A stretch of DNA of 27,800 nt from an archaeon (GTDB lineage: Archaea > Iainarchaeota > Iainarchaeia > Iainarchaeales > CSSED10-239): the NCBI GenBank assembly GCA_041677685.1, contig JBAYPN010000010.1:1-27800 (forward strand). The letters are read 5' to 3'. A program made the position numbers and the translations under genes. This document shows positions 2,407 to 25,838 of the stretch, one piece after another (position 1 is the first letter of the stretch; each line of letters starts with the position of its first letter). Under the pieces are notes generated by a model that was not told the DNA's origin, did not search any database, and saw only the letters and a list, made by a program, of their open reading frames with translations.

Positions 2407-4710
2407 TTATTCTTCTCTTGATTCTTTAATTCTCTTAACAATCCTTGGAATAAATTCTTCATCATACCATTTGCTCCAAATTGTGAAAAGATCATTGTAA
2501 TCTATTTTGCCTTTACTTTCTATATACTCTTCTTTTAAAAGTAACAGTTTGTTGTGTGCAAAAACAGAATGCTCTGCTTCAAGTATGTCAACAACCCCTA
2601 ACTTTATGGAGACATCTACTTGATGTTGCTTTTCGTTTGCCCTAAGTTTTATGTTGTCCCAAATTTCTTCTATCTTCATACCAGTTACTTTTGTTATTTT
2701 TACAAACAGTTCAGAATCTTTAAGTGCATCTTCATTCAATATTAGTCCATCTTTGGATGCCTCATATTCCATAAGGTTTAGTAACCCTCCTTCAGCATCT
2801 GGATCTACATTCCAATGTTTTTTAACTTCTGTTATCTGCACAACTCTTTTGTAACTTTTTAATGATCCTTTAAACCTAATAGGCTTAGTTATAACAACTA
2901 GGTCAGTTGCCTTAAAAGAAGTTGTTGGAACCTCTAAGTCGTTAACCACTCTGTCCCAAACAGCATAGGCAGAGTCTGCGTGAATAGTCCCCATAACAAC
3001 ATTACCAGCTGCCCCAATTCTCATAGCCTCATATAGAACTTTTGCTTCTACACTTCTTACTTCTCCAACAATGATTGCTGAGTCTCCAAGTCTTAAAGCT
3101 GTTCTTAAAGCATCTTCTGGTTTTACTTCTGTTGTTGCTGTGTCATCACTTCCAATTGCTGATTTTGTTTTTAGCCTTTGAGCATTAAACCCAATGTCTT
3201 TCATGTACATTATTGGTAACTCTAAAGTGTCCTCTTGAACAATGATTCTTGCATTCTGTAAAATCTCAAGCATCATGGCAGTCATTAAAGAGGTTTTTCC
3301 TGCCCCACGAGACCCAGCTACAAGAATTGTTGTGTTGTTGTCTATAAAAAAGCTAAGTAATCCTGCCCCAAGTGCGTTAATGGACTTAACATTGATAAGT
3401 TGTGGCAAAGTCCAAGGTGTGTCTTTATGTAACCTAAAAGCAAAAGCAATCCCGTCTGTTGCAAGAGGTCTTCCAATAATTGCAACTCTTGTGTTTAGGT
3501 CAGGCATATCATAGTCTAAGATTGGGTGTGCATCATCAAATGGTCTTCCAGACATTGCTCTTATTTTTCCTACAAAGCTTTCTGCATCTCTTTCTGGATA
3601 GTGGATGTTTGTTTGACATTGTCCATATTTTGAATGTATCAGGTATATAGGTTTTGAGCCTAATGGTGAATCTAAATAAACATCTGTAAGTTGTCTATCT
3701 GATAACAATAATTCTAATATTCCATAACCAATAGTATATCTAGTAACAATCTCTGATAAAGATAAAATGTCTTCTGGAGAAATTGATATTTGATATTTTC
3801 TAGCAACATCAATAATTGTGCTTTGGTAGATTCTTTGGAAATATTTTCTTGTTGAGTCTCCACTTGTAAGGGTTACTTTTCCTGGTTGGTAGTTTGCAAC
3901 TGTTTCTTTTGTTTTTGTAAGTACAAAGTAGTGATCAGGGGATAAAGTATACTCTGGTGGATTAATAATATATTGATATTCAATTTTGTCAGGATGTTTA
4001 AAGATTTGAACACTTGTGTTTAGTACTTGATACTCATCAATAAACTCTAGCTTGTCCATGTCTCCAAAAGAGATTGTTGATCCAATAAATGCAGGTTTAA
4101 TTTCTACTTCAAATAAAGTTCTGTAGATGTCATCAAGGTTATCTAGGTTTTTACTTTTTAGTAAGATTGGTTTTAAGACTTTAATAAAGTTGGTTTTATC
4201 ATATTGTTGTTTAAGATTATTTAGATGTTTAAGATTTGCTGTATAACATTTCTCACAAGGCTTTCCTTTATTGTCTTCCCCTCTAATCCTTGTGTTTTCA
4301 AGTTCTCTAAGAAGCCCAAGGTATGAGCCAATTGGGTCGTAGCTTAAAAGATCTCTTGCAAACTTTAGAATGTTGTTGTGTCTTCCAGGATAACATTCAT
4401 CACAATCAAGATCTGAGATCCCTAAATGTGAGCTTACCCAAACTGCTTTATTTTGAAAGTCCAATAATAGGTTTATCATTTCTTTTAAGTAGTTAGTTTG
4501 TGTTTCATCATATGCTCTTTCATAGACATCAGCTAATATTATTTCGTCTGCATCAACAGTTTCTAAGATCTTCATAACATGGTATCTACATCTAGGGTCT
4601 TCTGCAACTGATGTGTTATAAGGACAGTTTCTACAATCAAAGATTAGTTTTTGTTTATTTCCTTCTTTTGAAACTATATAGTTTCCAACTGTGTATTTTC
4701 CTATCTTCAT
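2407..4710 (-). CDS. Type II/IV secretion-family ATPase (archaeal FlaI/ArlI/PilB-like) with a Cys-rich N-terminal extension
   Basis: It has Walker A GSRGAGKTS, Asp box IIVQEDTLEL, Walker B IIVGEVRSVEA and His box MGTIHADSA. The N-terminal region carries CRNC..x13..C, CDEC and CEKC motifs. At 767 aa it is larger than typical FlaI (about 540 aa). Confidence 0.85.
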   Translation of the reverse strand: MKIGKYTVGNYIVSKEGNKQKLIFDCRNCPYNTSVAEDPRCRYHVMKILETVDADEIILADVYERAYDETQTNYLKEMINLLLDFQNKAVWVSSHLGISDLDCDECYPGRHNNILKFARDLLSYDPIGSYLGLLRELENTRIRGEDNKGKPCEKCYTANLKHLNNLKQQYDKTNFIKVLKPILLKSKNLDNLDDIYRTLFEVEIKPAFIGSTISFGDMDKLEFIDEYQVLNTSVQIFKHPDKIEYQYIINPPEYTLSPDHYFVLTKTKETVANYQPGKVTLTSGDSTRKYFQRIYQSTIIDVARKYQISISPEDILSLSEIVTRYTIGYGILELLLSDRQLTDVYLDSPLGSKPIYLIHSKYGQCQTNIHYPERDAESFVGKIRAMSGRPFDDAHPILDYDMPDLNTRVAIIGRPLATDGIAFAFRLHKDTPWTLPQLINVKSINALGAGLLSFFIDNNTTILVAGSRGAGKTSLMTAMMLEILQNARIIVQEDTLELPIMYMKDIGFNAQRLKTKSAIGSDDTATTEVKPEDALRTALRLGDSAIIVGEVRSVEAKVLYEAMRIGAAGNVVMGTIHADSAYAVWDRVVNDLEVPTTSFKATDLVVITKPIRFKGSLKSYKRVVQITEVKKHWNVDPDAEGGLLNLMEYEASKDGLILNEDALKDSELFVKITKVTGMKIEEIWDNIKLRANEKQHQVDVSIKLGVVDILEAEHSVFAHNKLLLLKEEYIESKGKIDYNDLFTIWSKWYDEEFIPRIVKRIKESREE

Positions 4711-10213: not shown

Positions 10214-11057
10214 TTCAAAATTTGTAATTTTTTTTATAATTCTTTTCCTATTTATACAAGTGCTTGGTTTAATTACTGCAAACTACTATTCCTCGCAAGA
10301 AGACATAAGGTTAACAATAATTACAGACAACCCTGATGACATCATTAACGCAATTGCAATTATTGTAGAGATTGTTTTACTAACAGGCCTTATGCTTTTT
10401 CTAAAAAGATTTTTTAAAAAAACAAGATACCTCTCAATCTTTGAATTTTTGGCTTTGTTTTTTGGAATGATAGTTGTTCTTGATGTCTTTTTAGATTATT
10501 TTGCAGCAATCCTTGTTTCTGCAATCTTATTACTTATTAGAAACTATTTAGGTAGACACTCTTCTTTTAAAAAAATCCTACTCTGGTATAATAATTTCCT
10601 ACTATCTTTAGCAATTGCTGGTGCAGGGTCATTGATTGGTCTATCTTTAGGTCTACTCCCAGTCATTGTGTTTTTAGTTCTTCTCTCAATCTACGACATT
10701 ATTGCAGTTTTTTACACAAAGCACATGGTTACTCTTGCAAAGATGTTTATTAAACAGAAGTTAGCCTTAACCTTTGCGCTTCCCTTAAAAAAGAAAGTTT
10801 ACCAACTAGGAGGTGGAGACATTGTTGTTCCATTAACTGTTTCTGCAAGTTTTTTCTTTGTCTTAATTAGAACTTACCCTTTTAAAGTTGCAATAATCCC
10901 AATTATATTAATTTGGGTTGCTTCAATTGTTGGTTTACTTGGAACCTTTTGGTATCTTTCAATTAACAAAAGAAAAATTAAAGTTCTTCCTGCTTTACCA
11001 CCTCAAGCAATATTGATCCTAATTTCAATAATTATAAGTTATTTGTTTATTCTTTAA
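10194..11057 (+). CDS. Presenilin / signal-peptide-peptidase family intramembrane aspartyl protease (A22, PSH-like)
   Basis: The 287-aa protein is polytopic and hydrophobic. All three signature motifs occur in the correct order: LSIYDIIAV (YD), LGGGDIVVP (GxGD) and LPALPP (PAL). I place the start at ATG 10194, because the track's extension from 10101 reads through the duplicated intergenic spacer. Confidence 0.75.
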   Translation: MAEKKLNSKFVIFFIILFLFIQVLGLITANYYSSQEDIRLTIITDNPDDIINAIAIIVEIVLLTGLMLFLKRFFKKTRYLSIFEFLALFFGMIVVLDVFLDYFAAILVSAILLLIRNYLGRHSSFKKILLWYNNFLLSLAIAGAGSLIGLSLGLLPVIVFLVLLSIYDIIAVFYTKHMVTLAKMFIKQKLALTFALPLKKKVYQLGGGDIVVPLTVSASFFFVLIRTYPFKVAIIPIILIWVASIVGLLGTFWYLSINKRKIKVLPALPPQAILILISIIISYLFIL

Positions 11058-11124
11058 AGATTAAAAAAGCACAGACTTTGCTTGTTCCAAATTCTTTAAA
11101 TACCTTTTGCACTATATAATATTT

Positions 11125-11556
11125 ATGAGTAAAGAAGAAACTTCAAAAGATTTAGATTATAAAACCTTATTAGACAGAATTTACATGTCTTTACCTGAAA
11201 GAACATTATCTAGTTCTAGATTTGAACTTCCAAGAGCAGAGTCAATGCTTCAAGGTAAACAAACTATTTGGAAGAACTTTTCTAAAGTTGCAAAGGATCT
11301 AAAAAGAGATGAAAATCAATTATATAAATTTGTAATGAAGGAGATTTCAACATCTTCTGCAATCACAAATGGAACTTTAGTCTTAAATGGTATTTTTAAT
11401 AATTATAAAATCAATTTGACCTTAGACAAGTATATTAAAAATTTTGTATTATGCTCAGCATGTAAAAAACCAGACACTGACATTGTTTCCCAAAATGGTG
11501 TAAAGGTCTTGAAGTGCAGTGCTTGTGGAGCAATAACACCATTACCAAAAATATAA
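11125..11556 (+). CDS. eif2b: Translation initiation factor aIF2 beta subunit
   Basis: It matches the eIF2-beta/eIF5 family: LLDRIY..LP, FELPRAE..QGKQTIWKNF, and the C-terminal zinc ribbon CSACKKPDT ... CSACGA. The ATG at 11125 is preferred to the TTG at 11107. Confidence 0.85.
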   Translation: MSKEETSKDLDYKTLLDRIYMSLPERTLSSSRFELPRAESMLQGKQTIWKNFSKVAKDLKRDENQLYKFVMKEISTSSAITNGTLVLNGIFNNYKINLTLDKYIKNFVLCSACKKPDTDIVSQNGVKVLKCSACGAITPLPKI

Positions 11557-11569
11557 TTTTGAAAAAGAC

Positions 11570-11860
11570 ATGATTGGAAAATTTCATAAAAGTCCTATAG
11601 GAAATATCTTTGCAGCTTGTGATAAGGAGCTATTAGGTTCTAAAATTATTTTTGATGATGTTGAGATCCACATAAACAAGGCTTTCTATGGTGTTGACAC
11701 AATTACAGAAGAAGAATTACTAACAAACATTAACAAGGCAGACAGTGTTAATATCTTTGGAAATAAGATCTGTTCTTTTTTAGTTTCTAAAAAGGTAATT
11801 ACAAAGGAACAAATAATTATAATCAACAACATCTCACACATACAGATTTATAAAATTTAA
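11570..11860 (+). CDS. DUF424-family conserved archaeal protein
   Basis: AACDKELLGSKI ... AFYG ... EEELL ... NIFGNK ... ISHIQIYKI matches the DUF424 pattern (vaaCDeeLlGk ... FYgge ... nlvGe ... PHaqif). The position next to aIF2-beta is typical. Confidence 0.7.
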   Translation: MIGKFHKSPIGNIFAACDKELLGSKIIFDDVEIHINKAFYGVDTITEEELLTNINKADSVNIFGNKICSFLVSKKVITKEQIIIINNISHIQIYKI

Positions 11861-12001
11861 GTCTAAAAAATAATTATTATGTGTTTAAAAAAAACAATTT
11901 AAAAAAGAAATTAAACTTAAAGACAATTTTAAAGAACAATTTAAAATAATTTTTAAAAAAAGAAATTAAAGATAATTTAAAAATAAAGGAGTGATTAACT
12001 T

Positions 12002-12382
12002 TTGACAGAAAATAATAATACAAACAACCCAGAAACTTATAAGAGAATGAGAGTTGCAAATAAGGCTGATCTTGAGCAATTTGGAAAGGTGACTCAACTT
12101 ATGGGTGTAAACAATATCCAAATTATGTGTGAAGATGGAAAAGAAAGAATCTGTAGAATTCCTGGAAAGATGTTTAAGCATATTTGGATAAAACCAAATG
12201 ACATAGTGATTGTGAAACTATGGGACTTTCAACCAACCAAAGGAGATGTTGTTTGGAGATATCTAGGTTTTCAAGTTACTCAACTAGAAAAGAAAGGACT
12301 TCTAAATGATCTTTATAAACACACTCATGATGTTATTGGTGAAAGGGAAAGCACAAGACCAGTCTACCATAAAAGAAAATAG
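12002..12382 (+). CDS. eif1a: Translation initiation factor aIF1A
   Basis: It has the S1-like core GKVTQLMGVNNIQIMCEDGKERICRIPGKMFKHIWIKPNDIVIV. The TTG start at 12002 lies 8 nt after GGAGTGAT (11988-11995), a near-perfect anti-16S match. Confidence 0.9.
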   Translation: MTENNNTNNPETYKRMRVANKADLEQFGKVTQLMGVNNIQIMCEDGKERICRIPGKMFKHIWIKPNDIVIVKLWDFQPTKGDVVWRYLGFQVTQLEKKGLLNDLYKHTHDVIGERESTRPVYHKRK

Positions 12383-12419
12383 TTCTTAAATGAAAATAGA
12401 TTTTTAAAATAGATTTCAA

Positions 12420-13160
12420 ATGATTACAAAAAACAGAATTGAGGGATATGTGTTTGATGACCAAACCCATAAAGCATTATTCAAATTATCATCAAATAAG
12501 ATATTTGATAGTATAGACTTTCCAATCGCCTCAGGAAAAGAAGCAATTACCTTTTATGGTCATCTTCAAGACACACCATTAGTTGCAAAAATCTATAAGA
12601 TGGAAACTTCTAATTTTAAAAACTTAGACAAATACATAGATGGAGATTACAGATTCAAAAATGCCTCTAAAGAAAAAAGAGACTTATTTTTAGTTTGGGC
12701 AAATAAGGAATTTAAAAATTTAACTTTAGCTTTAAAGCACGGGGTAAGTTGCCCAATTGTTATTGGTAAAGAAAAAAACATAATCATCATGTCCTTTATT
12801 GGAGAAAACCAAAAAGCCTACCCAAAATTAAATGAAGTTGATTTTGATCTAGATGTTGTTTACCCACAGATTGTAGATAACTATGCAAAGCTATTATATG
12901 GTGCAAAATTAGTTCATGCTGACTTTAGTGCTTTTAATATCTTGATCAACCCAAATGATCAAAAAATAACAATCATTGACATGGGCCAAGCTGTTGTTTG
13001 GTCTCACCCAAAAGCTCAAGAGTTTTTAAAAAGAGATATAATAAATATTATTGATTTTCTAAAAAAGAAATTTAAAAAATTAGAAATAACCTATGACTTT
13101 TTTTTAGAAGATTTAAAAAAGAAAAAAGAAGAGATTTATGGAAGAGATAATAAAAGTTAG
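12420..13160 (+). CDS. rio1: RIO-type serine/threonine protein kinase (Rio1-like, no N-terminal wHTH)
   Basis: It has SGKEAITFYG ... VAKIYK (ATP-binding Lys), LVHADFSAFNILI (catalytic loop) and IIDMGQAV (metal-binding loop). It sits in the canonical aIF1A-Rio-KH neighbourhood. Confidence 0.85.
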   Translation: MITKNRIEGYVFDDQTHKALFKLSSNKIFDSIDFPIASGKEAITFYGHLQDTPLVAKIYKMETSNFKNLDKYIDGDYRFKNASKEKRDLFLVWANKEFKNLTLALKHGVSCPIVIGKEKNIIIMSFIGENQKAYPKLNEVDFDLDVVYPQIVDNYAKLLYGAKLVHADFSAFNILINPNDQKITIIDMGQAVVWSHPKAQEFLKRDIINIIDFLKKKFKKLEITYDFFLEDLKKKKEEIYGRDNKS

Positions 13161-14737: not shown

Positions 14738-16573
14738 TTAAAATTCTAAATGACCAGTAAACTCATTTTCTAAAATCTTCTTAAATTTTGGAATTTTTAT
14801 TTTCTTTTTAAAGTTAGGTGCATTTAAAACAATTGTCTCATATTCTCCACCTTCCCCAGCAACATTAAATCCATATTTCTTATTTAATTTTTTAAGTTCT
14901 TCTAAGTCTTTTAAATTTAAAATCTTGCCTAACCATTTTATAGTTAACCCAAGTCCTGCAATTTTAACTATCATTATTTCAAAGTTGTTGTCTAATAATT
15001 CTTTAAGTTCCTCTCTTTGGTCTTTGTGCCACAAAGGAGTAAACATCTTTAAGTTAAGTTCATCACAGATTCTTTGTATTCTTTCTTTTTGATAATTACT
15101 ATAAAGTGCTCCTGAGACAACTCCTTTAATATCATATTTTTCTTTAGCTTCAACTATTGCTGCTTTTAAGACTAGGAGTTCTTTTTCCTTTTCTCCTTTT
15201 GTGTGTTTGGTAATTAATGGAATGTCTAGAGCCTTTGCTTGCTTTTTTATAATTTCTAGTTCTGGTTTTTGATACATGTAAGAGTCTTTATTTTCAGGAA
15301 TTACAGAAATTAAACAAGAAACTTCATAACCTTGTTTTTGCATAAGCCATAAAGATAGATTTGAATCTTTACCTCCTGAATATAGGCTTACAAGTTTTAT
15401 TTTTTTTCTTTTTTCTTTTAAAAAACTATTTAGGTATTCAGACTTATTTGTAAATTTATTTTTCTTTGTTAATTTTTCAAGAACCTTATCAAACCCAGAA
15501 CCATACTGTGCAGCAACTTTTTTTCTTAAATAATATTTTTCAGGTAACCTATAAGTTTTCCCTAAGTTTCTTAAGATCACTTTGTTGGTCAACTTATTTA
15601 TTTTGTCTTCATCTTCCAAAGATAAAGCAAAAGTTATCATGTCTTTATCTAAATATGGAAATTTAATTTGTATATCAAGATTTTTTGTTATTAGTGTATC
15701 TCTTAAAAGATCACTTCTATACATCTTATGTAAAAGGTCAATTGTGTCTTTAGAAATGTTTTTTGATTCTCTAAATTTAAAATACCCAGCAAACAACTCA
15801 TCTGCTCCAAGTCCTGAGAAAAGGATTTCAATTCCATCTTTTCTAGCAAGTCTACTTGCAAAATAGATAGGTAAACCAACCCCAACAGCAATTGGATTTG
15901 CACTATCTATTATTTTCACAATTTTTGGAATTTCTTTTTCTACATCCTTCTTATCTACACAAGCAATTTTTAATTTAAATTTATATAACTTTGAAAGTTC
16001 TTTTACAAAAACCAAATCTTTATCCTTTCCATATTCTTTTGAGTGTGCAAAATATGCTGCAAATGGAATTTTTAATTTAAGTAGTATCATAATAATTAAT
16101 AAAGAATCAATTCCTCCACTAAACAAAACTCCAACACTTCCTTTTTTAGAAATTCTTTTAACAACTGCTTTTTCTAAAGTTTCTTTTATTGTTGATAGTT
16201 TTTTTTCTTCTGTTCTTTTTATTTTTTGTATTTTAAAAAATTCTCTTTTTTCAAATATAGTTTCTTTAGAATTAATATCGTATATTAAAATTGTTCTTGG
16301 ATCTAAAAGTTTAATGTTATTTACTTTAATTTTTCTTAAAATTCTTTTTCTTGATGCAAAATATAGGCTTTTATGAGAAGATAAAGATTTAAAGATAGAG
16401 GAAGGAAGGGAAAGGGAGGAGGAGGAAGGGGGTAAAGACTCACAACCACGATCAAAAGTATAAAGCCATGCGTAAACTACGTTACTAGTCCACTCATAAC
16501 CTACATTTTCAAACCCAACAACCCATTTTAGAGGTGCCCACGATGCATTAACAAACCCAATTAATTTAAACAT
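14738..16573 (-). CDS. Fusion protein: AsnB-like synthetase domain (vestigial glutaminase) plus diphthine-ammonia ligase (Dph6/MJ0570-like) domain
   Basis: The N-terminal half has VGVLFSGGIDS (PP-loop), FSGLGADELFAGY, FPYLDKD and KVILRN..LP..RKKVAAQYGSG, which is the AsnB C-terminal domain. The C-terminal half has SLYSGGKDSNL, DSYMYQ, SGALYSNYQKERI, TPLW and GEGGEYETIVL, which is the MJ0570/Dph6 family. I place the start at MFKLIGFVN (16573). The track ORF extends to 16630. Confidence 0.8.
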   Translation of the reverse strand: MFKLIGFVNASWAPLKWVVGFENVGYEWTSNVVYAWLYTFDRGCESLPPSSSSLSLPSSIFKSLSSHKSLYFASRKRILRKIKVNNIKLLDPRTILIYDINSKETIFEKREFFKIQKIKRTEEKKLSTIKETLEKAVVKRISKKGSVGVLFSGGIDSLLIIMILLKLKIPFAAYFAHSKEYGKDKDLVFVKELSKLYKFKLKIACVDKKDVEKEIPKIVKIIDSANPIAVGVGLPIYFASRLARKDGIEILFSGLGADELFAGYFKFRESKNISKDTIDLLHKMYRSDLLRDTLITKNLDIQIKFPYLDKDMITFALSLEDEDKINKLTNKVILRNLGKTYRLPEKYYLRKKVAAQYGSGFDKVLEKLTKKNKFTNKSEYLNSFLKEKRKKIKLVSLYSGGKDSNLSLWLMQKQGYEVSCLISVIPENKDSYMYQKPELEIIKKQAKALDIPLITKHTKGEKEKELLVLKAAIVEAKEKYDIKGVVSGALYSNYQKERIQRICDELNLKMFTPLWHKDQREELKELLDNNFEIMIVKIAGLGLTIKWLGKILNLKDLEELKKLNKKYGFNVAGEGGEYETIVLNAPNFKKKIKIPKFKKILENEFTGHLEF

Positions 16574-16734
16574 ATTTACATTAATCAACAAACTATATAA
16601 AAAATTGTTGTTTATGTTTACAAATGTCAATCTATTTATAAATATATTTTAATATATTATATATAGCGCTTACCTTTAAGTTAAATTTAAAAACTTTAAA
16701 ATTTAAAAACTTTTTAAAAAAATAGTGATTATTA

Positions 16735-19831: not shown

Positions 19832-20614
19832 TTATTTCACAATCTTAAAATCTTTACTTTCAATTTCTTTTATAAAATCCTCTTCTGCATTCTTCATTTC
19901 TTGTTTCATATTTTTCATGTGTTTGTCTTTTAAAGAAAAGTCAGGATAAATAATTCTTTTAATATTTTTAAAATATCTTTGGGTTAATGGTTTTTTGTAA
20001 CCAAGATATAAAAAGAGATCCCAAATCATTATTTTTTTAGCTCTTTTCTGATTTTTATATTTTTTAAGTATTAGAAATTTAAGTGTGTTGTAAGTTATCT
20101 TAAATGAAAATCTCTTAATATGATTCAAGTTTAGTTGTAAAATATACTTTTTAGAAAGCAAGGGATGCTCTTTTCTAAAAACTTCTTTTAATAGCCTTTT
20201 TGGACACTTTATCATCGGCACATAGATTTTGTGTTCCATGTCTAGAAAGTGTTCCAAAATCAAATGATTAATATTACTTAGATTATGTGTTTTTCTAAAA
20301 TACCCATGTATCCTTAGATCTAAACAAAAATGGGAAAGAAACCCAAGAGCAAAGGAAAATTCTTCTTTTGTTTTTGAATATTTAACTAAATCTTTTGCAA
20401 ATTTAAAACCAATTTTATTATTATCATTATCCCCGTGCCAAAAGTCACTTAAGTTTTTTCCAATAAACTTTTTAGTTTTAAATGGCACAAAATAATAAAA
20501 GTCAGGATAGATTGCTCCAGATATTAAATAATCATAATTAATTTTATTCTTTAAAATTGAATTTTTAGAAACAATTTTTTTTGCAAAGTATATATGGGTA
20601 GATGGGTTTGGCAT
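19832..20614 (-). CDS. Zinc-dependent phospholipase C-like / metal-dependent hydrolase family protein
   Basis: It has N-terminal PSTHIYFA, then GAIYPDFYYF and LGFLSHFCLDLRIHGY, which match the His/Asp metal-ligand pattern of the Zn_dep_PLPC family. It starts 7 nt after the porB stop. Confidence 0.5.
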   Translation of the reverse strand: MPNPSTHIYFAKKIVSKNSILKNKINYDYLISGAIYPDFYYFVPFKTKKFIGKNLSDFWHGDNDNNKIGFKFAKDLVKYSKTKEEFSFALGFLSHFCLDLRIHGYFRKTHNLSNINHLILEHFLDMEHKIYVPMIKCPKRLLKEVFRKEHPLLSKKYILQLNLNHIKRFSFKITYNTLKFLILKKYKNQKRAKKIMIWDLFLYLGYKKPLTQRYFKNIKRIIYPDFSLKDKHMKNMKQEMKNAEEDFIKEIESKDFKIVK

Positions 20615-20621
20615 GATTGAT

Positions 20622-23600
20622 CTATTTTGTAAGTTTTTCTTTTTCTAATAATTTTCTAAATTCTTCATCAACATGTTCTTGTATTTTTTTAATCTCTTCT
20701 TTATTTTTTAAAACTTCTTTAAATTTTGTTTGAGTTTTTAAAAGTTCTTCAATTGGTGGCCTTTTATCTTGTTTGTAGTTGATTGTGTATTTCCCATCTT
20801 CAAACTCATAAAGTGGCCAAAAATTAGTTTGAGTTGCTAACTTTGAAATGTTGATTGTTTGGCTTGATGGTGCTTTCATGTTTGTAGGACAAGCAGCAAA
20901 GACTAAGATTAATGCAGGTCCTTTTTTATCAAATGCTTTTTTAACCTTATTATATAAGTCAACTTGGTTCCAAGGATTAGCTGTTGCTACATATGGGATG
21001 TTATGAGCAATTGAAATTGCTGCTAAGTCCTTTTGGAATTTTTCCTTCCCAACGCTTACCTTTCCTGAAGGTGTGGTTGTTGTTGAAGCTCCATAGGGTG
21101 TAGCTGAAGAACGTTGGTTACCAGTGTTGTGTACAACAATTCCATTAGCAATAAAGTTATGTTCTCCTTCTATTCTAAGATCTAAAGTTTGTTCAATACT
21201 TTTTGGAATTATGTTTTTTATTTTTTTAATTTCAAAGTATTTATTTTTTATTAAAAAATTTTGATATTTATATTGGGCACTGTATTTTTCTAAGTTCCAT
21301 TTATCTTTTTCTGAAAAACAAATTGAATAATATTCACAATCCTTTAATAATGGTCTATTTACTATTAATGTTCCTTTTTTCTTTTTTTGAGTTGTAATTT
21401 TTCCAACTCTATAATCCATGGTTTGTAATAACAATCTTAATCTTTCAATTAAATCTTTATTTACTGACACATATCTGTAACTTTCTTTTTTCTTTTCATA
21501 AATATGCCCATCAGACATTATTAATCCTTTTATAAATTCTTTTTTCTGATTAGATGGTAATGTGAAAACCCAGGATGGTATTGTTTTATTTTTTGCTCCT
21601 TGTTTAAATTCAAGTGAATTAATAAATTTACTAATATTTACTGAATTAAAGTAAATATAATATTTGTCTTTAGAGATATTACTTTGGTCAAATATTTTTT
21701 TGTGTATTTTGATTAACTTAGTTCTTTCTTTTGTGTTTTCTGGTAGTGCAAAACCAATTTCTCCTTTTTCTTCTCTAATCCAGCCATTTTCTAAGTATAA
21801 TCCTAGCCATAACATTAGTTCTTTACTAGACTCTGTTGGAATTTTAACTTTGTTTATATTATTTTTTTTATTTTTTCCTTTTTCAGCTAATTTTATTTTT
21901 TCAAATTTAAATGTTTTTCCTTTATCGTATAATCTTTTAATAGTTACAATTTCATCATTTTGTTTAAGTTCTGAAACTGTTTTCCATATTAGTTCACTTT
22001 CTTTTCCCCTTCCATTTCTTTTTAATGTTAAAAAAGGATGATTTGAAGTTGCTTTAATATTTTGATGAATAGTTTCTATTTCATATACTTTTTTTCTTCC
22101 ATTATCAAATACACCTGTGCATTTTTTAAGTACCGGGTGATAACTTTTTTGATCAAAGGCCCAAACTTTTTCTCCTTTTTTAATTTCAGTAATTTTTTTT
22201 AATCCAGTTTCAGTCATAATCAATGATTCTGTAGACAAACAATTCATATACCCTTCATTATCATAACAGATATAAACAAAATCATGTCCTCTTTCAAGAG
22301 CTCCTGAAAGTGACTGTAAACCTATGTCAAAACTATTCATGTTTGTACTAATTCTGCCATCTTTTTCAATAATCATTATATGATTTTTTTTTAATTCAGG
22401 ACAATATATTTCACCATCATAATCATAACTAGAAATTTGTTTTCTTCTTAAATTTGCAAGACTAGTAGGTTTGTAATTTGAAAGAGATATTGCATATTCA
22501 TAACGTCCTTTTCTTTTACTTGTATTTAAATGTGCCCTATATCCTAATTTTAAAGCAATTTCTATCACATCATCTTTTAATTTTGGGGATGTTGTACTAT
22601 AAGAATAAGCAATTGTTTTTTTTCTTTTTATAATAGTTCCATCTCCTACTATTAATGCATCTAATAATATTTTTAGATGTTTATTAGATAATTCTTTGAA
22701 TTCTTTAGGGATAAATTTATCTTTTGCTTTTCCAAATTGTGTTAAATAAGTCCATAATTGTTGATTATTTATAATGAATCTATCTTGGCTGTACCAGTTA
22801 TTTAAATTAGTATTATTTAAGCAGTTGTGCACTTTTTTAACATATTCTTTTTTTGTTTGAGATATATATACATTATATTTTTCTCTTTTTTCAGATTTTT
22901 TTGATAGATGTCCTTTTGATATCCAGTATCCAAAAAATTCTAACCAGTCTTCCATTTTAATTTTTTTAACAATTTTTTTATTTGCAGATAGTTTATTATA
23001 TTTTACAGATGGTAATTCAAAAAAAGTTTTATTTTTTCCTTTCCATATTAAGTCACCAGTAATAATGTTTACTTTATCACTCCTACCGTAATTTAAAAGT
23101 TCTTGTGCTTTAATCACTTCAATTTTATTATTTAATTTATTATATATAGGCACATTATGTTGTAGTGATACATCAAAGTGAACAAAGTTATGATTAACAC
23201 TAACTATTTTTTCTTTATAATTATATTTGTGCATTTTTATAATTGTTGATTTTTCCATTTGTTTATTTTTTGGATTTACTGACCAAATGACATCTTTTTT
23301 AGTAATTTTTTCTACGTTTTTAAATCCATCTTCTGTTAATATTTTTGTGCCTGGTATGTAACATCCACCATCCCCTGCAAATGCTAAGAATTTAATTTCT
23401 TTTTTTATTCTCCCCTTCCTTTTAAGCACATTATAAGCTGACTCCACTCCAGAAATTGTAGCTGCAACATTTGCAAAAACAGAATGAATCCAAGGAACAT
23501 TCCAAGAGGTATAAGGATAAATAGTTGTTGTAACTTCTGCACAGGATGTTGCACTAGCAACAACTACTGGGCTGTCTTGGGTTGCCAAAGCTGTTCTTAA

Positions 23601-23693
23601 AATAATTGTTATTGGGCACCCTGCACAGGTTCTATGTCCTGCTACTATTTTTTTTTCTTTATTTATTCTTTCTGCAACTTCTATATTATTCAT
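20622..23693 (-). CDS. porB: 2-oxoacid (pyruvate):ferredoxin oxidoreductase beta (TPP-binding) subunit precursor containing two inteins
   Basis: The exteins are aa 1-110, 454-484 and 857-1023, totalling 308 aa. They read GHRTCAGCP ... FAGDGG | [31 protein letters not shown] | [19 protein letters not shown], which is colinear with PorB. Confidence 0.9.
   Translation of the reverse strand: [1023 protein letters not shown]
21126..22241 (-). mobile_element. Intein 2 in porB (372 aa, aa 485-856) with a [9 protein letters not shown]-type endonuclease domain
   Basis: It starts [13 protein letters not shown] after YMN and has block B [16 protein letters not shown]-like motifs are [13 protein letters not shown] and [11 protein letters not shown]. 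It ends with the canonical [20 protein letters not shown] followed by Thr. Confidence 0.9.
22335..23363 (-). mobile_element. Intein 1 in porB (343 aa, aa 111-453) with a [9 protein letters not shown]-type endonuclease domain
   Basis: It starts [13 protein letters not shown] directly after GDGG and has a SLQH (TxxH-like) block B. [9 protein letters not shown]-like motifs are [13 protein letters not shown] and [11 protein letters not shown]. It ends ...STNMN and is followed by Ser. I verified the boundary codons on the sequence. Confidence 0.8.
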
Positions 23694-23734: not shown

Positions 23735-24895
23735 TCATTTTCTTAGTCCAAGATATTTATTTTTGTTTATTTTTCCATTTAAAAAATCATTTAATAATTT
23801 TTCAATATCCTTTTGATAAAGGTCTCTTCCACCAAGTCCAAAGACATAAGAGTAAACATTTGGTTTATTCTTTTCATTAATCACACTCAAAGATATGTCT
23901 TTAAAGAGAGGTGCATGACTACCAGGCCCCTCAGACCTATCAAGAACAATAACAGTTTTTGCTTTCTTTAAATATTTTGCATACTCTTTATAGATAAATG
24001 GTCTAAAAAGAATAGGTCTAAGTAAACCTACTGATTTTTTTTCAAGTCTAAGTTTATCAATAACATCTTTTGTGCTTTGAGCAGTTGATGACAAAACAAC
24101 AATTACAATTTCTGATTTTGAAGCAAAATAATCTTCACAAATATTTATTTTTTCTCCAAAAAATTTTTCAAAGTCTTTTGAAATTTCTTTATATTCTTTT
24201 TCCACACTTTTAAAAGCATCAAACATCTGCACTTTTATTTCAAAGAAATAATCAGGAAGTGCAAGTGGCCCAATTGAGATTGGTTTTTCTGTGTTAAGTA
24301 AATTGTAAGGACCTTTATACTCTCCAACAAACTTTTTAACAACCTTATCATCAAAGACTTCAATTGTCTCAAGATTATGGGATGTAACAAAACCATCTGA
24401 GCAAATCATAATTGGCAAATATACTTTTTCTGCAAGCTTTGTAGAAAATAAAGTCATAGCATATGCTTCTTGTGCATCTTCACAATAGACTTGCATCCAA
24501 CCTTGATCAATTGCAGACATAGAATCTGAATGGTCACAATGAATATTAATTGGAGCAGATGTTGCTCTATTAACAACAGGCATAACAATTGGAAGTCTTA
24601 GTCCTGAAGTTAATGCAAGCATTTCAAACATATATAACAGACCTTGCGAAGCTGTGGCTGTTACTGCTCTTGCCCCTGCTGATGCAGCACCAACAACTAC
24701 TGAAAGTGCAGAATGTTCAGACTCAACTCTAACAATCTCACAATCTACTTCTCCATCTGCAGCAAATTTTGCATAACTTTCAATAATTGGGGTTTGTGGA
24801 GTTATTGGGTACATTGCAAAGACATCAAGTTCAATTTGTTTTAAGGCATAAGAGATTGCTTCTCCTCCATTTAATGCAATTTTTTTATTTTTCAT
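23735..24895 (-). CDS. porA: 2-oxoacid (pyruvate):ferredoxin oxidoreductase alpha subunit
   Basis: LNGGEAISYALKQ..VDVFAMYPITPQTPI, ESEHSALS and the ASQGLLYMFE motifs are typical of PorA. It sits between porD and porB. Confidence 0.9.
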   Translation of the reverse strand: MKNKKIALNGGEAISYALKQIELDVFAMYPITPQTPIIESYAKFAADGEVDCEIVRVESEHSALSVVVGAASAGARAVTATASQGLLYMFEMLALTSGLRLPIVMPVVNRATSAPINIHCDHSDSMSAIDQGWMQVYCEDAQEAYAMTLFSTKLAEKVYLPIMICSDGFVTSHNLETIEVFDDKVVKKFVGEYKGPYNLLNTEKPISIGPLALPDYFFEIKVQMFDAFKSVEKEYKEISKDFEKFFGEKINICEDYFASKSEIVIVVLSSTAQSTKDVIDKLRLEKKSVGLLRPILFRPFIYKEYAKYLKKAKTVIVLDRSEGPGSHAPLFKDISLSVINEKNKPNVYSYVFGLGGRDLYQKDIEKLLNDFLNGKINKNKYLGLRK

Positions 24896-24941: not shown

Positions 24942-25229
24942 TTATTCTTTAACCATTTCTATACATTTTACAGGGCACACTTGGGCACAGATCCCGCATC
25001 CTTTACAAAATTTTAAATCAGTTTCGCTTCTCTGTATTCCTTTTTTCATCTTCTTTGCAATTATACAATCTTCTGGACAGGCAATATAGCACATCATACA
25101 TTGGATACATCTTTTTTTATCCCAAATCGGTTTTTCAGATCTCCAATGTCCTGTTTTTGTTTCTGTTGAGGTTCCTCCTGGAAGTGTTCCTCCAATTGGT
25201 AGTTTTTTATATTTCTTTTTAGTAGCCAT
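24942..25229 (-). CDS. porD: 2-oxoacid:ferredoxin oxidoreductase delta subunit (2x[4Fe-4S] ferredoxin)
   Basis: It has two CxxCxxCxxxCP motifs (CIQCMMCYIACP and CKGCGICAQVCP) and is 95 aa long. Confidence 0.9.
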   Translation of the reverse strand: MATKKKYKKLPIGGTLPGGTSTETKTGHWRSEKPIWDKKRCIQCMMCYIACPEDCIIAKKMKKGIQRSETDLKFCKGCGICAQVCPVKCIEMVKE

Positions 25230-25268: not shown

Positions 25269-25838
25269 TTATATTTTTTCAAAACCTTTTTTTAAACAAT
25301 TTAAATTAGGTTCAATTATTTGTCTTTTACCTTTTTTTTCAAATTGAATTTCAATTGATTTTTTAACATCTTGATATCCAACTAATTTTTCTAAATTATT
25401 ATTTTTTAAATATTTTAGAAGGCTTCCAATCAAGACAATATTAGGGTTATCAATTTTAATTTCTTCAAGTGCAATGGCACTTCCATCAATTGTGTATAGT
25501 TCTTTACTTTTTAAATTTTTAAAATAACTTTTTTCTTTATGTGTATTAATAATTATTGGGCAATTATAATTTTTTAGTTCAGGCATAGTTTCAAATAACT
25601 TATAATCAATAACCAAAACTATATCAGGGTTGGTAACAGGTTCGTGGATTCTAATCTTTTTATTTGAAATTCTAACAAATGCTCTAACAGGTGCACCCCT
25701 TCTTTCAGGGCCATACTCTGGAAAGCCTTGAATCTCATTTCCAGAAAGCATAGCACTTTCTGCAATAATTTGAGCACAGGTTTTTGCACCTTGTCCACCT
25801 CTTCCAAAAACAATTATTTCAAAATTTTCTTTTTTCAT
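25269..25838 (-). CDS. porG: 2-oxoacid:ferredoxin oxidoreductase gamma subunit
   Basis: FGRGGQGAKTCAQIIAESA ... EYGPERRGAPV is the PorG signature. It is the first gene of the canonical G-D-A-B order. Confidence 0.9.
   Translation of the reverse strand: MKKENFEIIVFGRGGQGAKTCAQIIAESAMLSGNEIQGFPEYGPERRGAPVRAFVRISNKKIRIHEPVTNPDIVLVIDYKLFETMPELKNYNCPIIINTHKEKSYFKNLKSKELYTIDGSAIALEEIKIDNPNIVLIGSLLKYLKNNNLEKLVGYQDVKKSIEIQFEKKGKRQIIEPNLNCLKKGFEKI

Follow-up and report, generated by a model that had tools for sequence, protein, structure and literature searches.

How can an active enzyme be formed from a gene whose most conserved segment is interrupted twice? This question is raised by porB, the gene of the beta subunit of a 2-oxoacid:ferredoxin oxidoreductase (OFOR), in a stretch of 27,800 nucleotides from contig JBAYPN010000010.1 (assembly GCA_041677685.1), the whole of which is referred to below as the window. 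The source is 'Candidatus Iainarchaeum', a DPANN archaeon; members of the protein cluster are named 'Candidatus ainarchaeum sp.' or 'archaeon' in NCBI. The gene is a single open reading frame (ORF) of 1023 codons, in which two large inserts separate three pieces of a beta subunit. In our opinion, it is very probable that these inserts are two selfish inteins of class 1 type and that both of them must splice to give an active PorB of 308 amino acid residues (aa). This reading is based on direct observations of the anatomy, the fold and the colinearity, of purifying selection, and of how the inteins are distributed and which sites they occupy.

The precursor and its host protein

The inserts were first described in an earlier note made from the sequence alone, which removed aa 111-453 and 485-856 from the ORF to leave 308 aa and pointed out that each insert begins with Cys, ends with Asn and is followed by Ser or Thr. 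The borders proved to be as placed there. The first insert starts with Cys and ends with ...NMN before Ser, the second one starts with Cys and ends with ...VVHN before Thr, and the distance between them is indeed only 31 extein residues (93 bp). After both inserts were cut out in silico, the separated segments of the thiamine pyrophosphate (TPP) loop were joined, and a PorB of 308 aa was obtained (Table 1).

The window contains 28.6% G+C; a stop codon is expected approximately every 12 codons, and the chance of an open frame of 1023 codons is about 1e-38. In independent samples of ENA, JGI and Logan, 21 contigs encode the identical 1023-aa protein, with a constant operon context. Because of this negligible open-frame probability and the recurrence of the same protein on independent contigs, the insert-bearing frame is neither a product of chance nor an artefact.

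The colinearity of the spliced product with PorB, anticipated in the earlier note, was confirmed by profile and structure-based comparisons. Against the NCBIfam PorB model NF008819, the spliced product gives one stretch (residues 7-300, profile positions 5-296 of 300) with 360 bits, whereas the unspliced ORF gives three stretches with 310 bits. NF008819 is the best model for the spliced product, followed by the VorB-type model NF008818 with 306.6 bits, and PF02775 (TPP_enzyme_C) scores 69 bits on PorB. The alignments with the PFOR beta chain 9bt4_C (E 2e-76) and with the beta subunit of oxalate oxidoreductase 5c4i_C (E 1e-72) are free of gaps across both junctions.

Both insertion sites, designated a and b, are situated in the most conserved stretch of PorB. 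Residues G107-D108-G109, D113-Q117, D135, N136, Y139, N141, T142, G143 and Q145 are invariant in an alignment of 12 extein sequences (A1), as are the Cys ligands C23, C26, C51 and C220. In the alignment with D. africanus PFOR (1b0p), D108 corresponds to Asp963, N136 to Thr991 and the pair N141/T142 to Asn996/Thr997; these PFOR residues have roles in Mg2+/TPP and substrate binding. Site a (G110/S111) lies two residues past the Mg-binding Asp. The Asn closing the GDG...N Mg/TPP motif is N136 by the same alignment, and site b (N141/T142) is found five residues downstream of it, within the YxNTGxQ segment. The earlier statement that both inteins interrupt the GDG...N segment is, therefore, correct for site a and not for site b. 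The order of genes is porG-porD-porA-porB, with porB being the last gene of an intact operon.

Table 1. Positions in the window of the porB precursor and its parts, of the LAGLIDADG motifs and of the other operon genes
Feature	Position	Strand	Remark
porB precursor ORF, 1023 aa + stop, two inteins inside	20622..23693	(-)	2-oxoacid:ferredoxin oxidoreductase beta subunit
N-extein, aa 1-110, closes with FAGDGG Mg/TPP motif	23364..23693	(-)	
Intein 1, PorB site a (G110/S111), aa 111-453, 343 aa	22335..23363	(-)	
Middle extein, aa 454-484, 31 aa, core of TPP/Mg loop	22242..22334	(-)	
Intein 2, PorB site b (N141/T142), aa 485-856, 372 aa	21126..22241	(-)	
C-extein, aa 857-1023 + stop	20622..21125	(-)	
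Intein 1 LAGLIDADG motif 1, Lys150 for catalytic Glu/Asp	22905..22946	(-)	alignment A2
Intein 1 LAGLIDADG motif 2, catalytic Asp kept	22632..22667	(-)	D241 invariant in A2
Intein 2 LAGLIDADG motif 1, consensus GD reads EN, catalytic Asp replaced by Asn	21777..21812	(-)	
Intein 2 LAGLIDADG motif 2, catalytic Asp kept	21501..21536	(-)	D in 85/88 homologues
porA, alpha subunit, POR_N + PFOR_II	23735..24895	(-)	
porD, delta subunit, 2x[4Fe-4S] ferredoxin-like	24942..25229	(-)	
porG, gamma subunit, POR domain	25269..25838	(-)	

Splicing domains and endonucleases of the two inserts

By its sequence features, the insert at site b can be assigned to the canonical class-1 inteins with a LAGLIDADG endonuclease. 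It exceeds the curated cut-offs of PF14890 (Pfam Intein_splicing; 55.3 vs 35.8 bits), TIGR01445 (intein N-terminal region; 30.6 vs 24.5 bits) and TIGR01443 (intein C-terminal region; 25.4 vs 15.6 bits), and the threshold of LAGLIDADG_3 is also passed. Its motifs are TSNH in block B, TLDL...EHNF in block F and VVHN at the end, with Thr at the +1 position. The splicing residues C1, T65 and H68 of block B, D354 and H361 of block F, H371 and N372 are kept in 88 of 88 homologues.

The recognition of the insert at site a is different. The earlier note regarded matches to Hint and intein profiles as a check of both inserts; intein 2 gives such matches above the thresholds, intein 1 does not, and the intein fold of the latter was found by modelling. 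The sole threshold passed by intein 1 is that of LAGLIDADG_3 (46.5 vs 22.5 bits). Its AlphaFold2 model, built on the family alignment A2, has a mean pLDDT of 90.6 and a pTM of 0.91, and the top Foldseek match of this model is the TliVMA intein 7qsu (E 1.6e-16, TM 0.63). Further matches in the PDB include PI-SceI 1vde and PI-PfuI 1dq3, the inteins associated with homing endonucleases being matched with E values of 1e-16 to 1e-12, while free LAGLIDADG enzymes and the Hint domains of mini-inteins and hedgehog proteins are ranked lower. The model suggests that insert 1 has a Hint fold with a nested endonuclease, i.e., that it is an endonuclease-bearing intein.

Alignment A2 consists of 15 sequences, namely eight PorB site-a inteins and seven distant relatives from other hosts; P0125, in which a related intein is found in an epimerase/dehydratase, lacks the C-terminus and was, therefore, not included. 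Residues C1, H69 (block B, with Ser/Thr before it at B:7), G336 and N343 are invariant in A2, and at least 90% of the sequences have Cys (C321) at position 4 of block F. In intein 1 itself, Cys1 is accompanied by VSLQH in block B (S66/H69), IYCPEL...NH in block F, where Cys replaces the Asp of position 4, and the terminal NMN with N343, followed by Ser at the +1 position. The C-termini read LN(M/G)N in the PorB site-a inteins and GN in the inteins of other hosts, and a penultimate His was found in none of the 15 sequences. According to Mills, Johnson and Perler (PMC4031507), block F position 4 is occupied across inteins most often by Asp, then by Cys and then by Trp; work cited in the same paper documents inteins that splice although the penultimate His is lacking. 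Since Cys is the second commonest residue at this position and His-less splicing has precedents, the odd residues of intein 1 stay within the known range of class 1, and this intein belongs to a non-canonical subfamily.

Class 3 inteins are characterized by the signature Trp(B:12)/Cys(F:4)/Thr(G:5). This identity was ruled out for intein 1, in which Cys1 is invariant, B:12 is Val and G:5 is Asn. A shared origin of inteins 1 and 2 was also considered and rejected, the only likeness between them being 30% over 33 residues of block A.

Relatives of intein 1 occur in other hosts (among P0122-P0131). They are located directly after the DEAGRG active-site motif of RNase HII, behind (D/S)PPY in putative DNA methyltransferases, in a LamG-domain protein (two inteins) and in an epimerase/dehydratase. 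In a search of representatives clustered at 50% identity, the intein 1 region was matched at 26-43% identity in many proteins, mostly of 400-3700 aa.

The following course of events is proposed. The gene would be translated as a precursor of 1023 aa with two unrelated and independently acquired inteins, each with a nested LAGLIDADG endonuclease. Intein 2 would leave it through an N-S acyl shift at Cys1, transesterification to Thr+1, cyclisation of Asn372 aided by His371 and an O-N shift. Most likely, intein 1 would take the same four steps via Cys1, Ser+1 and Asn343; its subfamily has Met or Gly for the penultimate His and Cys for the Asp of block F position 4. Until both inteins are excised, the beta subunit would have neither cofactor binding nor an active site, because the inteins split the invariant GDGG...DNE.Y.NTG.Q loop that holds Mg2+-thiamine diphosphate; after excision, a normal PorB of 308 aa would be formed. 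The inteins themselves would be selfish elements that spread by homing into the conserved DNA of PorB.

Two LAGLIDADG-type motifs are present in each insert, as the earlier note had reported. The acid of motif 1 in intein 1 is Glu or Asp in 14 of 14 A2 relatives and Lys in the window allele (WISKG). In motif 1 of intein 2, the family sequence VGDGW (Asp in 84 of 88 homologues) is replaced by LENGW, and among the 88 homologues Asn occurs at this position only in the window allele (present also as its cluster representative P0001) and in P0008 and P0098. The nearest relative, P0002, retains GD, and in P0020, another allele with two inteins, the motifs of both inteins are intact. An active LAGLIDADG enzyme is expected to have a catalytic acid at the end of both motifs; in both inteins of the window this acid is absent from motif 1, from which we infer that both endonucleases of this lineage are impaired. 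Because both sites are occupied and the motif-1 acid is substituted in both inteins (E to K and D to N), the window allele has probably passed fixation and entered the decaying phase of the homing cycle. Such decay of endonucleases is the expected outcome once both sites are occupied in a population.

Occupancy, distribution and selection

The occupancy of the sites in other PorBs was read from the breakpoints of high-scoring segment pairs and from junction motifs. All of the best 120 homologues of the precursor are intein-containing PorBs. About 112 of these 120 proteins, with a length of about 677 aa, carry an intein at site b only, and six at site a only (P0010, P0015, P0024, P0045, P0099 and P0106). 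Both sites are occupied in two of them, the window allele and P0020, a protein of 1005 aa with 45% extein identity. More alleles with both sites occupied were revealed by the search of representatives: P0272, with a full-length intein at site a and a mini-intein at site b, and P0273. Clustering at 50% identity is a poor census of such double alleles and puts the window allele itself under the site-a-only representative P0010. Close relatives differ in occupancy, P0002 (93% extein identity) having an intein at site b only and P0010 (74%) at site a only, while the window allele has both.

The single-intein and intein-free alleles that the earlier note proposed to look for among relatives thus exist, the former as P0002 and P0010 and the latter in GTDB genomes. 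Intein-free PorB alleles are abundant in GTDB, with at most 59% identity to the window extein; the scan was made with the peptide pattern DNE[GA]Y[MQ]NT, which spans site b, and it returns intein-free alleles only and is no census. The empty sites keep the hydroxyl-bearing +1 residue: site a reads G/T in 64 of 70 intein-free alleles and site b reads N/T in 70 of 70.

When intein 2 was used as a query, 160 proteins were found; among the 120 listed, every recorded host domain is a TPP enzyme domain, and the rest of these 120 are truncated calls without an extein domain. Mini-inteins are also present at site b: in PorBs of 440-525 aa (e.g., P0237, P0239 and P0255), the match covers only 27-35% of intein 2. 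Since these forms without an endonuclease domain occur there too, site b seems to show every stage of the homing cycle. Named carriers of PorB inteins include Woese-, Nano- and Aenigmatarchaeota, Iainarchaeum, Methanophagales and Nitrososphaerota among archaea and Omnitrophota, Aerophobetes and Patescibacteria among bacteria.

A third site, c, was found outside the window in P0290, P0302, P0304, P0336, P0380 and P0392. It corresponds to I132/C133 in the window numbering (within 22242-22334), and a LAGLIDADG intein of about 520 aa is inserted there before the Cys of CYDNE; this intein shows CL.P.EE...FVISN and scores 54-56 bits with PF14890. Judging by these alignments, three intein families target residues 110-142, and the TPP loop of 33 residues can be regarded as an intein hotspot.

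Both inteins and exteins are under purifying selection. In the comparison of the window with the site-b-only allele L081/P0002 (93% extein identity), the ratio of non-synonymous to synonymous substitution rates (dN/dS) is 0.10 for intein 2 and 0.06 for the extein; in the comparison with the site-a-only allele L082/P0010 (74% extein identity), it is 0.15 for intein 1 and 0.18 for the extein. The DNA identity of intein and exteins is 90.0% vs 87.6% in the intein 2 pair and 80.5% vs 75.5% in the intein 1 pair. Among the sampled site-b carriers, the identity of inteins is 62% on average vs 55% for exteins and is higher in 84% of pairs, a comparison that is biased, the matches being ranked by an intein-containing query. 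Intein identity levels off near 60% even where extein identity is 40-50%. Such a pattern fits horizontal spread of the site-b intein, within a sample that is query-biased.

MCM, RPA, Topo VI A and Topo VI B of the window, which had been noted earlier as intein-free classical hosts, show no Hint or LAGLIDADG match. Beside the other double-intein porB, in GCA_053536855.1 (L084 1-367), there is a T2SSE-type ATPase of 1259 aa with an intein (PF14890 + LAGLIDADG_3). The T2SSE-type ATPase of the window itself (767 aa, 2407-4710) has no intein match, and Pfam covers only its residues 415-607.

Alternative explanations and known systems

Several points weigh against the explanation by two splicing inteins and have to be taken into account. 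Splicing and its order are inferred from the sequence. The 360 bits of the spliced product are below the 405-bit equivalog cut-off of NF008819; for this reason, its membership in the OFOR beta family can be taken as secure from the alignments, and pyruvate, as opposed to another 2-oxoacid, is only the likely substrate. Intein 1 is under the Hint thresholds (PF14890 13.9 vs 35.8 bits, Hint_2 23.3 vs 28.4 bits) and has Met instead of the penultimate His (G:6). In intein 2, Glu151 beside Asn152 (Asp-Asn in P0008) could serve as a register-shifted catalytic acid, and the loss of this endonuclease is, therefore, not certain. The peculiarities of intein 1, i.e., the lack of the penultimate His, Cys at block F position 4 and the low Hint scores, together with the damaging substitutions in both endonucleases, would also be compatible with one insert, most plausibly intein 1, being splicing-dead and with porB being a dead gene that is open only through recent ancestry. 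We consider this very improbable, since the odd residues are family-wide (8/8 PorB site-a inteins), and related inteins in other hosts likewise have Cys at F:4 and no penultimate His. In addition, dN/dS is 0.06-0.18 over exteins and inteins, the allele is identical on 21 contigs with an intact operon, and intein 1 retains the catalytic Cys1, the His of block B and the Asn at its end, with Ser kept at +1. It is next to inconceivable that the inserts remain unexcised as permanent domain insertions or are artefacts of assembly or gene calling. The separate NCBI calls of aa 483-1023 or 493-1023, taken at face value, suggest a split gene, but the frame is unbroken (about 1e-38 by chance), the same sequence is present in 21 independent assemblies, and the borders are exactly at Cys...Asn/Ser and Cys...Asn/Thr. 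Insertions of 343 and 372 aa in the invariant TPP loop would, moreover, clash with the solved PFOR fold, with which the protein is aligned without gaps only after their removal.

A different idea supplements the basic intein reading rather than excludes it. The inteins might have been co-opted as a post-translational gate with conditional splicing, for example, through a reversible disulfide between Cys1 and Cys(F:4) in intein 1, so that maturation of an oxygen-labile TPP/Fe-S enzyme would be confined to reducing conditions. The active site of intein 1 contains two cysteines, Cys1 and C321, and one of the two inteins of M. smegmatis DnaB is reversibly inhibited by H2O2 via an intramolecular disulfide of the catalytic Cys (PMC6195587). 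Purifying selection acting on both inteins despite the damaged endonuclease motifs and the better average conservation of site-b inteins than of exteins are also consistent with such a gate. However, this conservation comparison is affected by the query bias mentioned above, and occupancy is sporadic even in close relatives, with intein-free alleles being common, which is the signature of selfish elements. In our opinion, co-option is unlikely, and a broader version, in which the TPP loop is a cross-domain hotspot with three independent sites and maturation is switched by redox conditions through at least some of its inteins (e.g., intein 1 with its two cysteines), the oxygen-labile pyruvate:ferredoxin oxidoreductase staying unassembled before the cell becomes reducing, is slightly less likely still. 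If it were true, the concept of the 'intein as environmental sensor' would be widened from replication proteins to central anaerobic metabolism.

Two selfish class-1-type inteins in PorB can be compared with several known systems. The VMA/ATPase inteins (PI-SceI; TliVMA and PhoVMA; 1vde, 7qsu, 7qss and 7qst) and PI-PfuI (1dq3) have the same Hint fold with a nested two-motif LAGLIDADG endonuclease and share Cys1, the terminal Asn and a +1 nucleophile with the PorB inteins. In structure, the intein 1 model matches them best, yet their sequence identity is only 10-16%, and intein 1 differs from them in that Met replaces the penultimate His and block F position 4 is occupied by Cys. Intein 2 is recognized by the same curated sequence models as these inteins. 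PorB, however, is a TPP/Fe-S metabolic enzyme and not an ATPase, polymerase or helicase. Inteins are also known from PEP synthase, GlmS and UDP-glucose dehydrogenase of M. jannaschii. In mycobacterial SufB (PMC8891592), too, the intein is inserted where a metabolic or Fe-S-related protein has a conserved segment for binding of a cofactor or substrate.

Two unrelated neighbouring inteins in the most conserved part of an essential protein are likewise represented by haloarchaeal MCM-a/MCM-d (PMC10643990) and M. smegmatis DnaB i1/i2 (PMC6195587). As for PorB, relatives commonly have alleles with one intein, and function depends on the splicing of both. Unlike PorB, these hosts are replication helicases, and in PorB the two inteins are separated by only 31 residues (93 bp). 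Activity of the MCM endonucleases has been demonstrated (PMC10643990), whereas each of the two endonucleases in PorB has a motif-1 substitution; the question of whether one endonuclease of a double allele may decay freely is raised in the same paper. Class 3 inteins (mycobacteriophage Bethlehem DnaB and D. radiodurans Snf2; PMC2807308, PMC4031507) share the F:4 Cys, their branch point, with intein 1 and most of its relatives, but they have no N-terminal nucleophile, whereas Cys1 of intein 1 is strictly conserved.

The earlier note did not recall PorB among the classical intein hosts. This holds for papers and curated models, none of which was found for it, and does not hold for metagenomes, where hundreds of PorBs carry such inteins. 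Literature searches gave no paper in which inteins are described in PorB or OFOR beta, and the NCBIfam 'intein-containing' exception models that appeared concern GyrA, Tes, RtcB and RecA, with none for PorB. The text of the 2016 intein survey (PMC4760082) does not name PorB/OFOR beta subunits and describes inteins as concentrated overwhelmingly in proteins of replication, repair and nucleotide metabolism, especially ATPases. Table 1 of PMC10643990 contains no multi-intein gene in DPANN (DPANN genomes n = 2). PorB may be considered a new intein host and its inteins new alleles of a known type of element, the mechanism not being new.

These data extend the host range of inteins to a central anaerobic TPP/Fe-S enzyme, which frequently carries inteins in DPANN, Methanophagales, Omnitrophota, Patescibacteria and other groups. 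The rule of cofactor-loop targeting, with its emphasis on ATPases in the 2016 survey (PMC4760082), would be widened to a thiamine-diphosphate/Fe-S enzyme. Natural single and double PorB alleles provide a system for studying interference of neighbouring inteins. PorB inteins are also candidate tools, since the junctions of intein 2 are very well defined and site b is occupied by mini-inteins as well.

The annotation of this gene in databases is incomplete. NCBI records without the full gene present aa 483-1023 as a 541-aa 'LAGLIDADG family homing endonuclease' (e.g., MDD3084633.1); in MCK9292962.1, aa 493-1023 are called a 'thiamine pyrophosphate-dependent enzyme', and MDD2477744.1 is likewise a partial call. 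Truncated calls of about 540 aa are repeated across many other PorB alleles with the site-b intein, and JGI auto-annotation labels many such proteins as 'beta subunit/intein/homing endonuclease'. Because only the C-terminal part of about 540 aa is called by NCBI, as a homing endonuclease, POR and the capacity for pyruvate oxidation will be under-called in metabolic reconstructions of these small-genome organisms.

Some observations concern the surroundings of porB. A gene of a Zn-dependent phospholipase C-like protein (260 aa, 19832-20614, minus strand) begins 8 bp downstream of porB, and its position is kept in all eight contigs shown with the window allele. In contig L082, a 259-aa gene without a Pfam match is located between porA and porB. 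A region of about 1.36 kb in the window (11057-12420) contains no ORF of at least 150 aa, no tRNA and no Rfam match at the gathering threshold. The ORF of 630 aa at 14738-16630 (minus strand) combines an asparagine-synthase-like domain with Diphthami_syn_2 (diphthamide synthase), and the syntenic place in L082 is occupied by a version of 704 aa with extra GATase domains.

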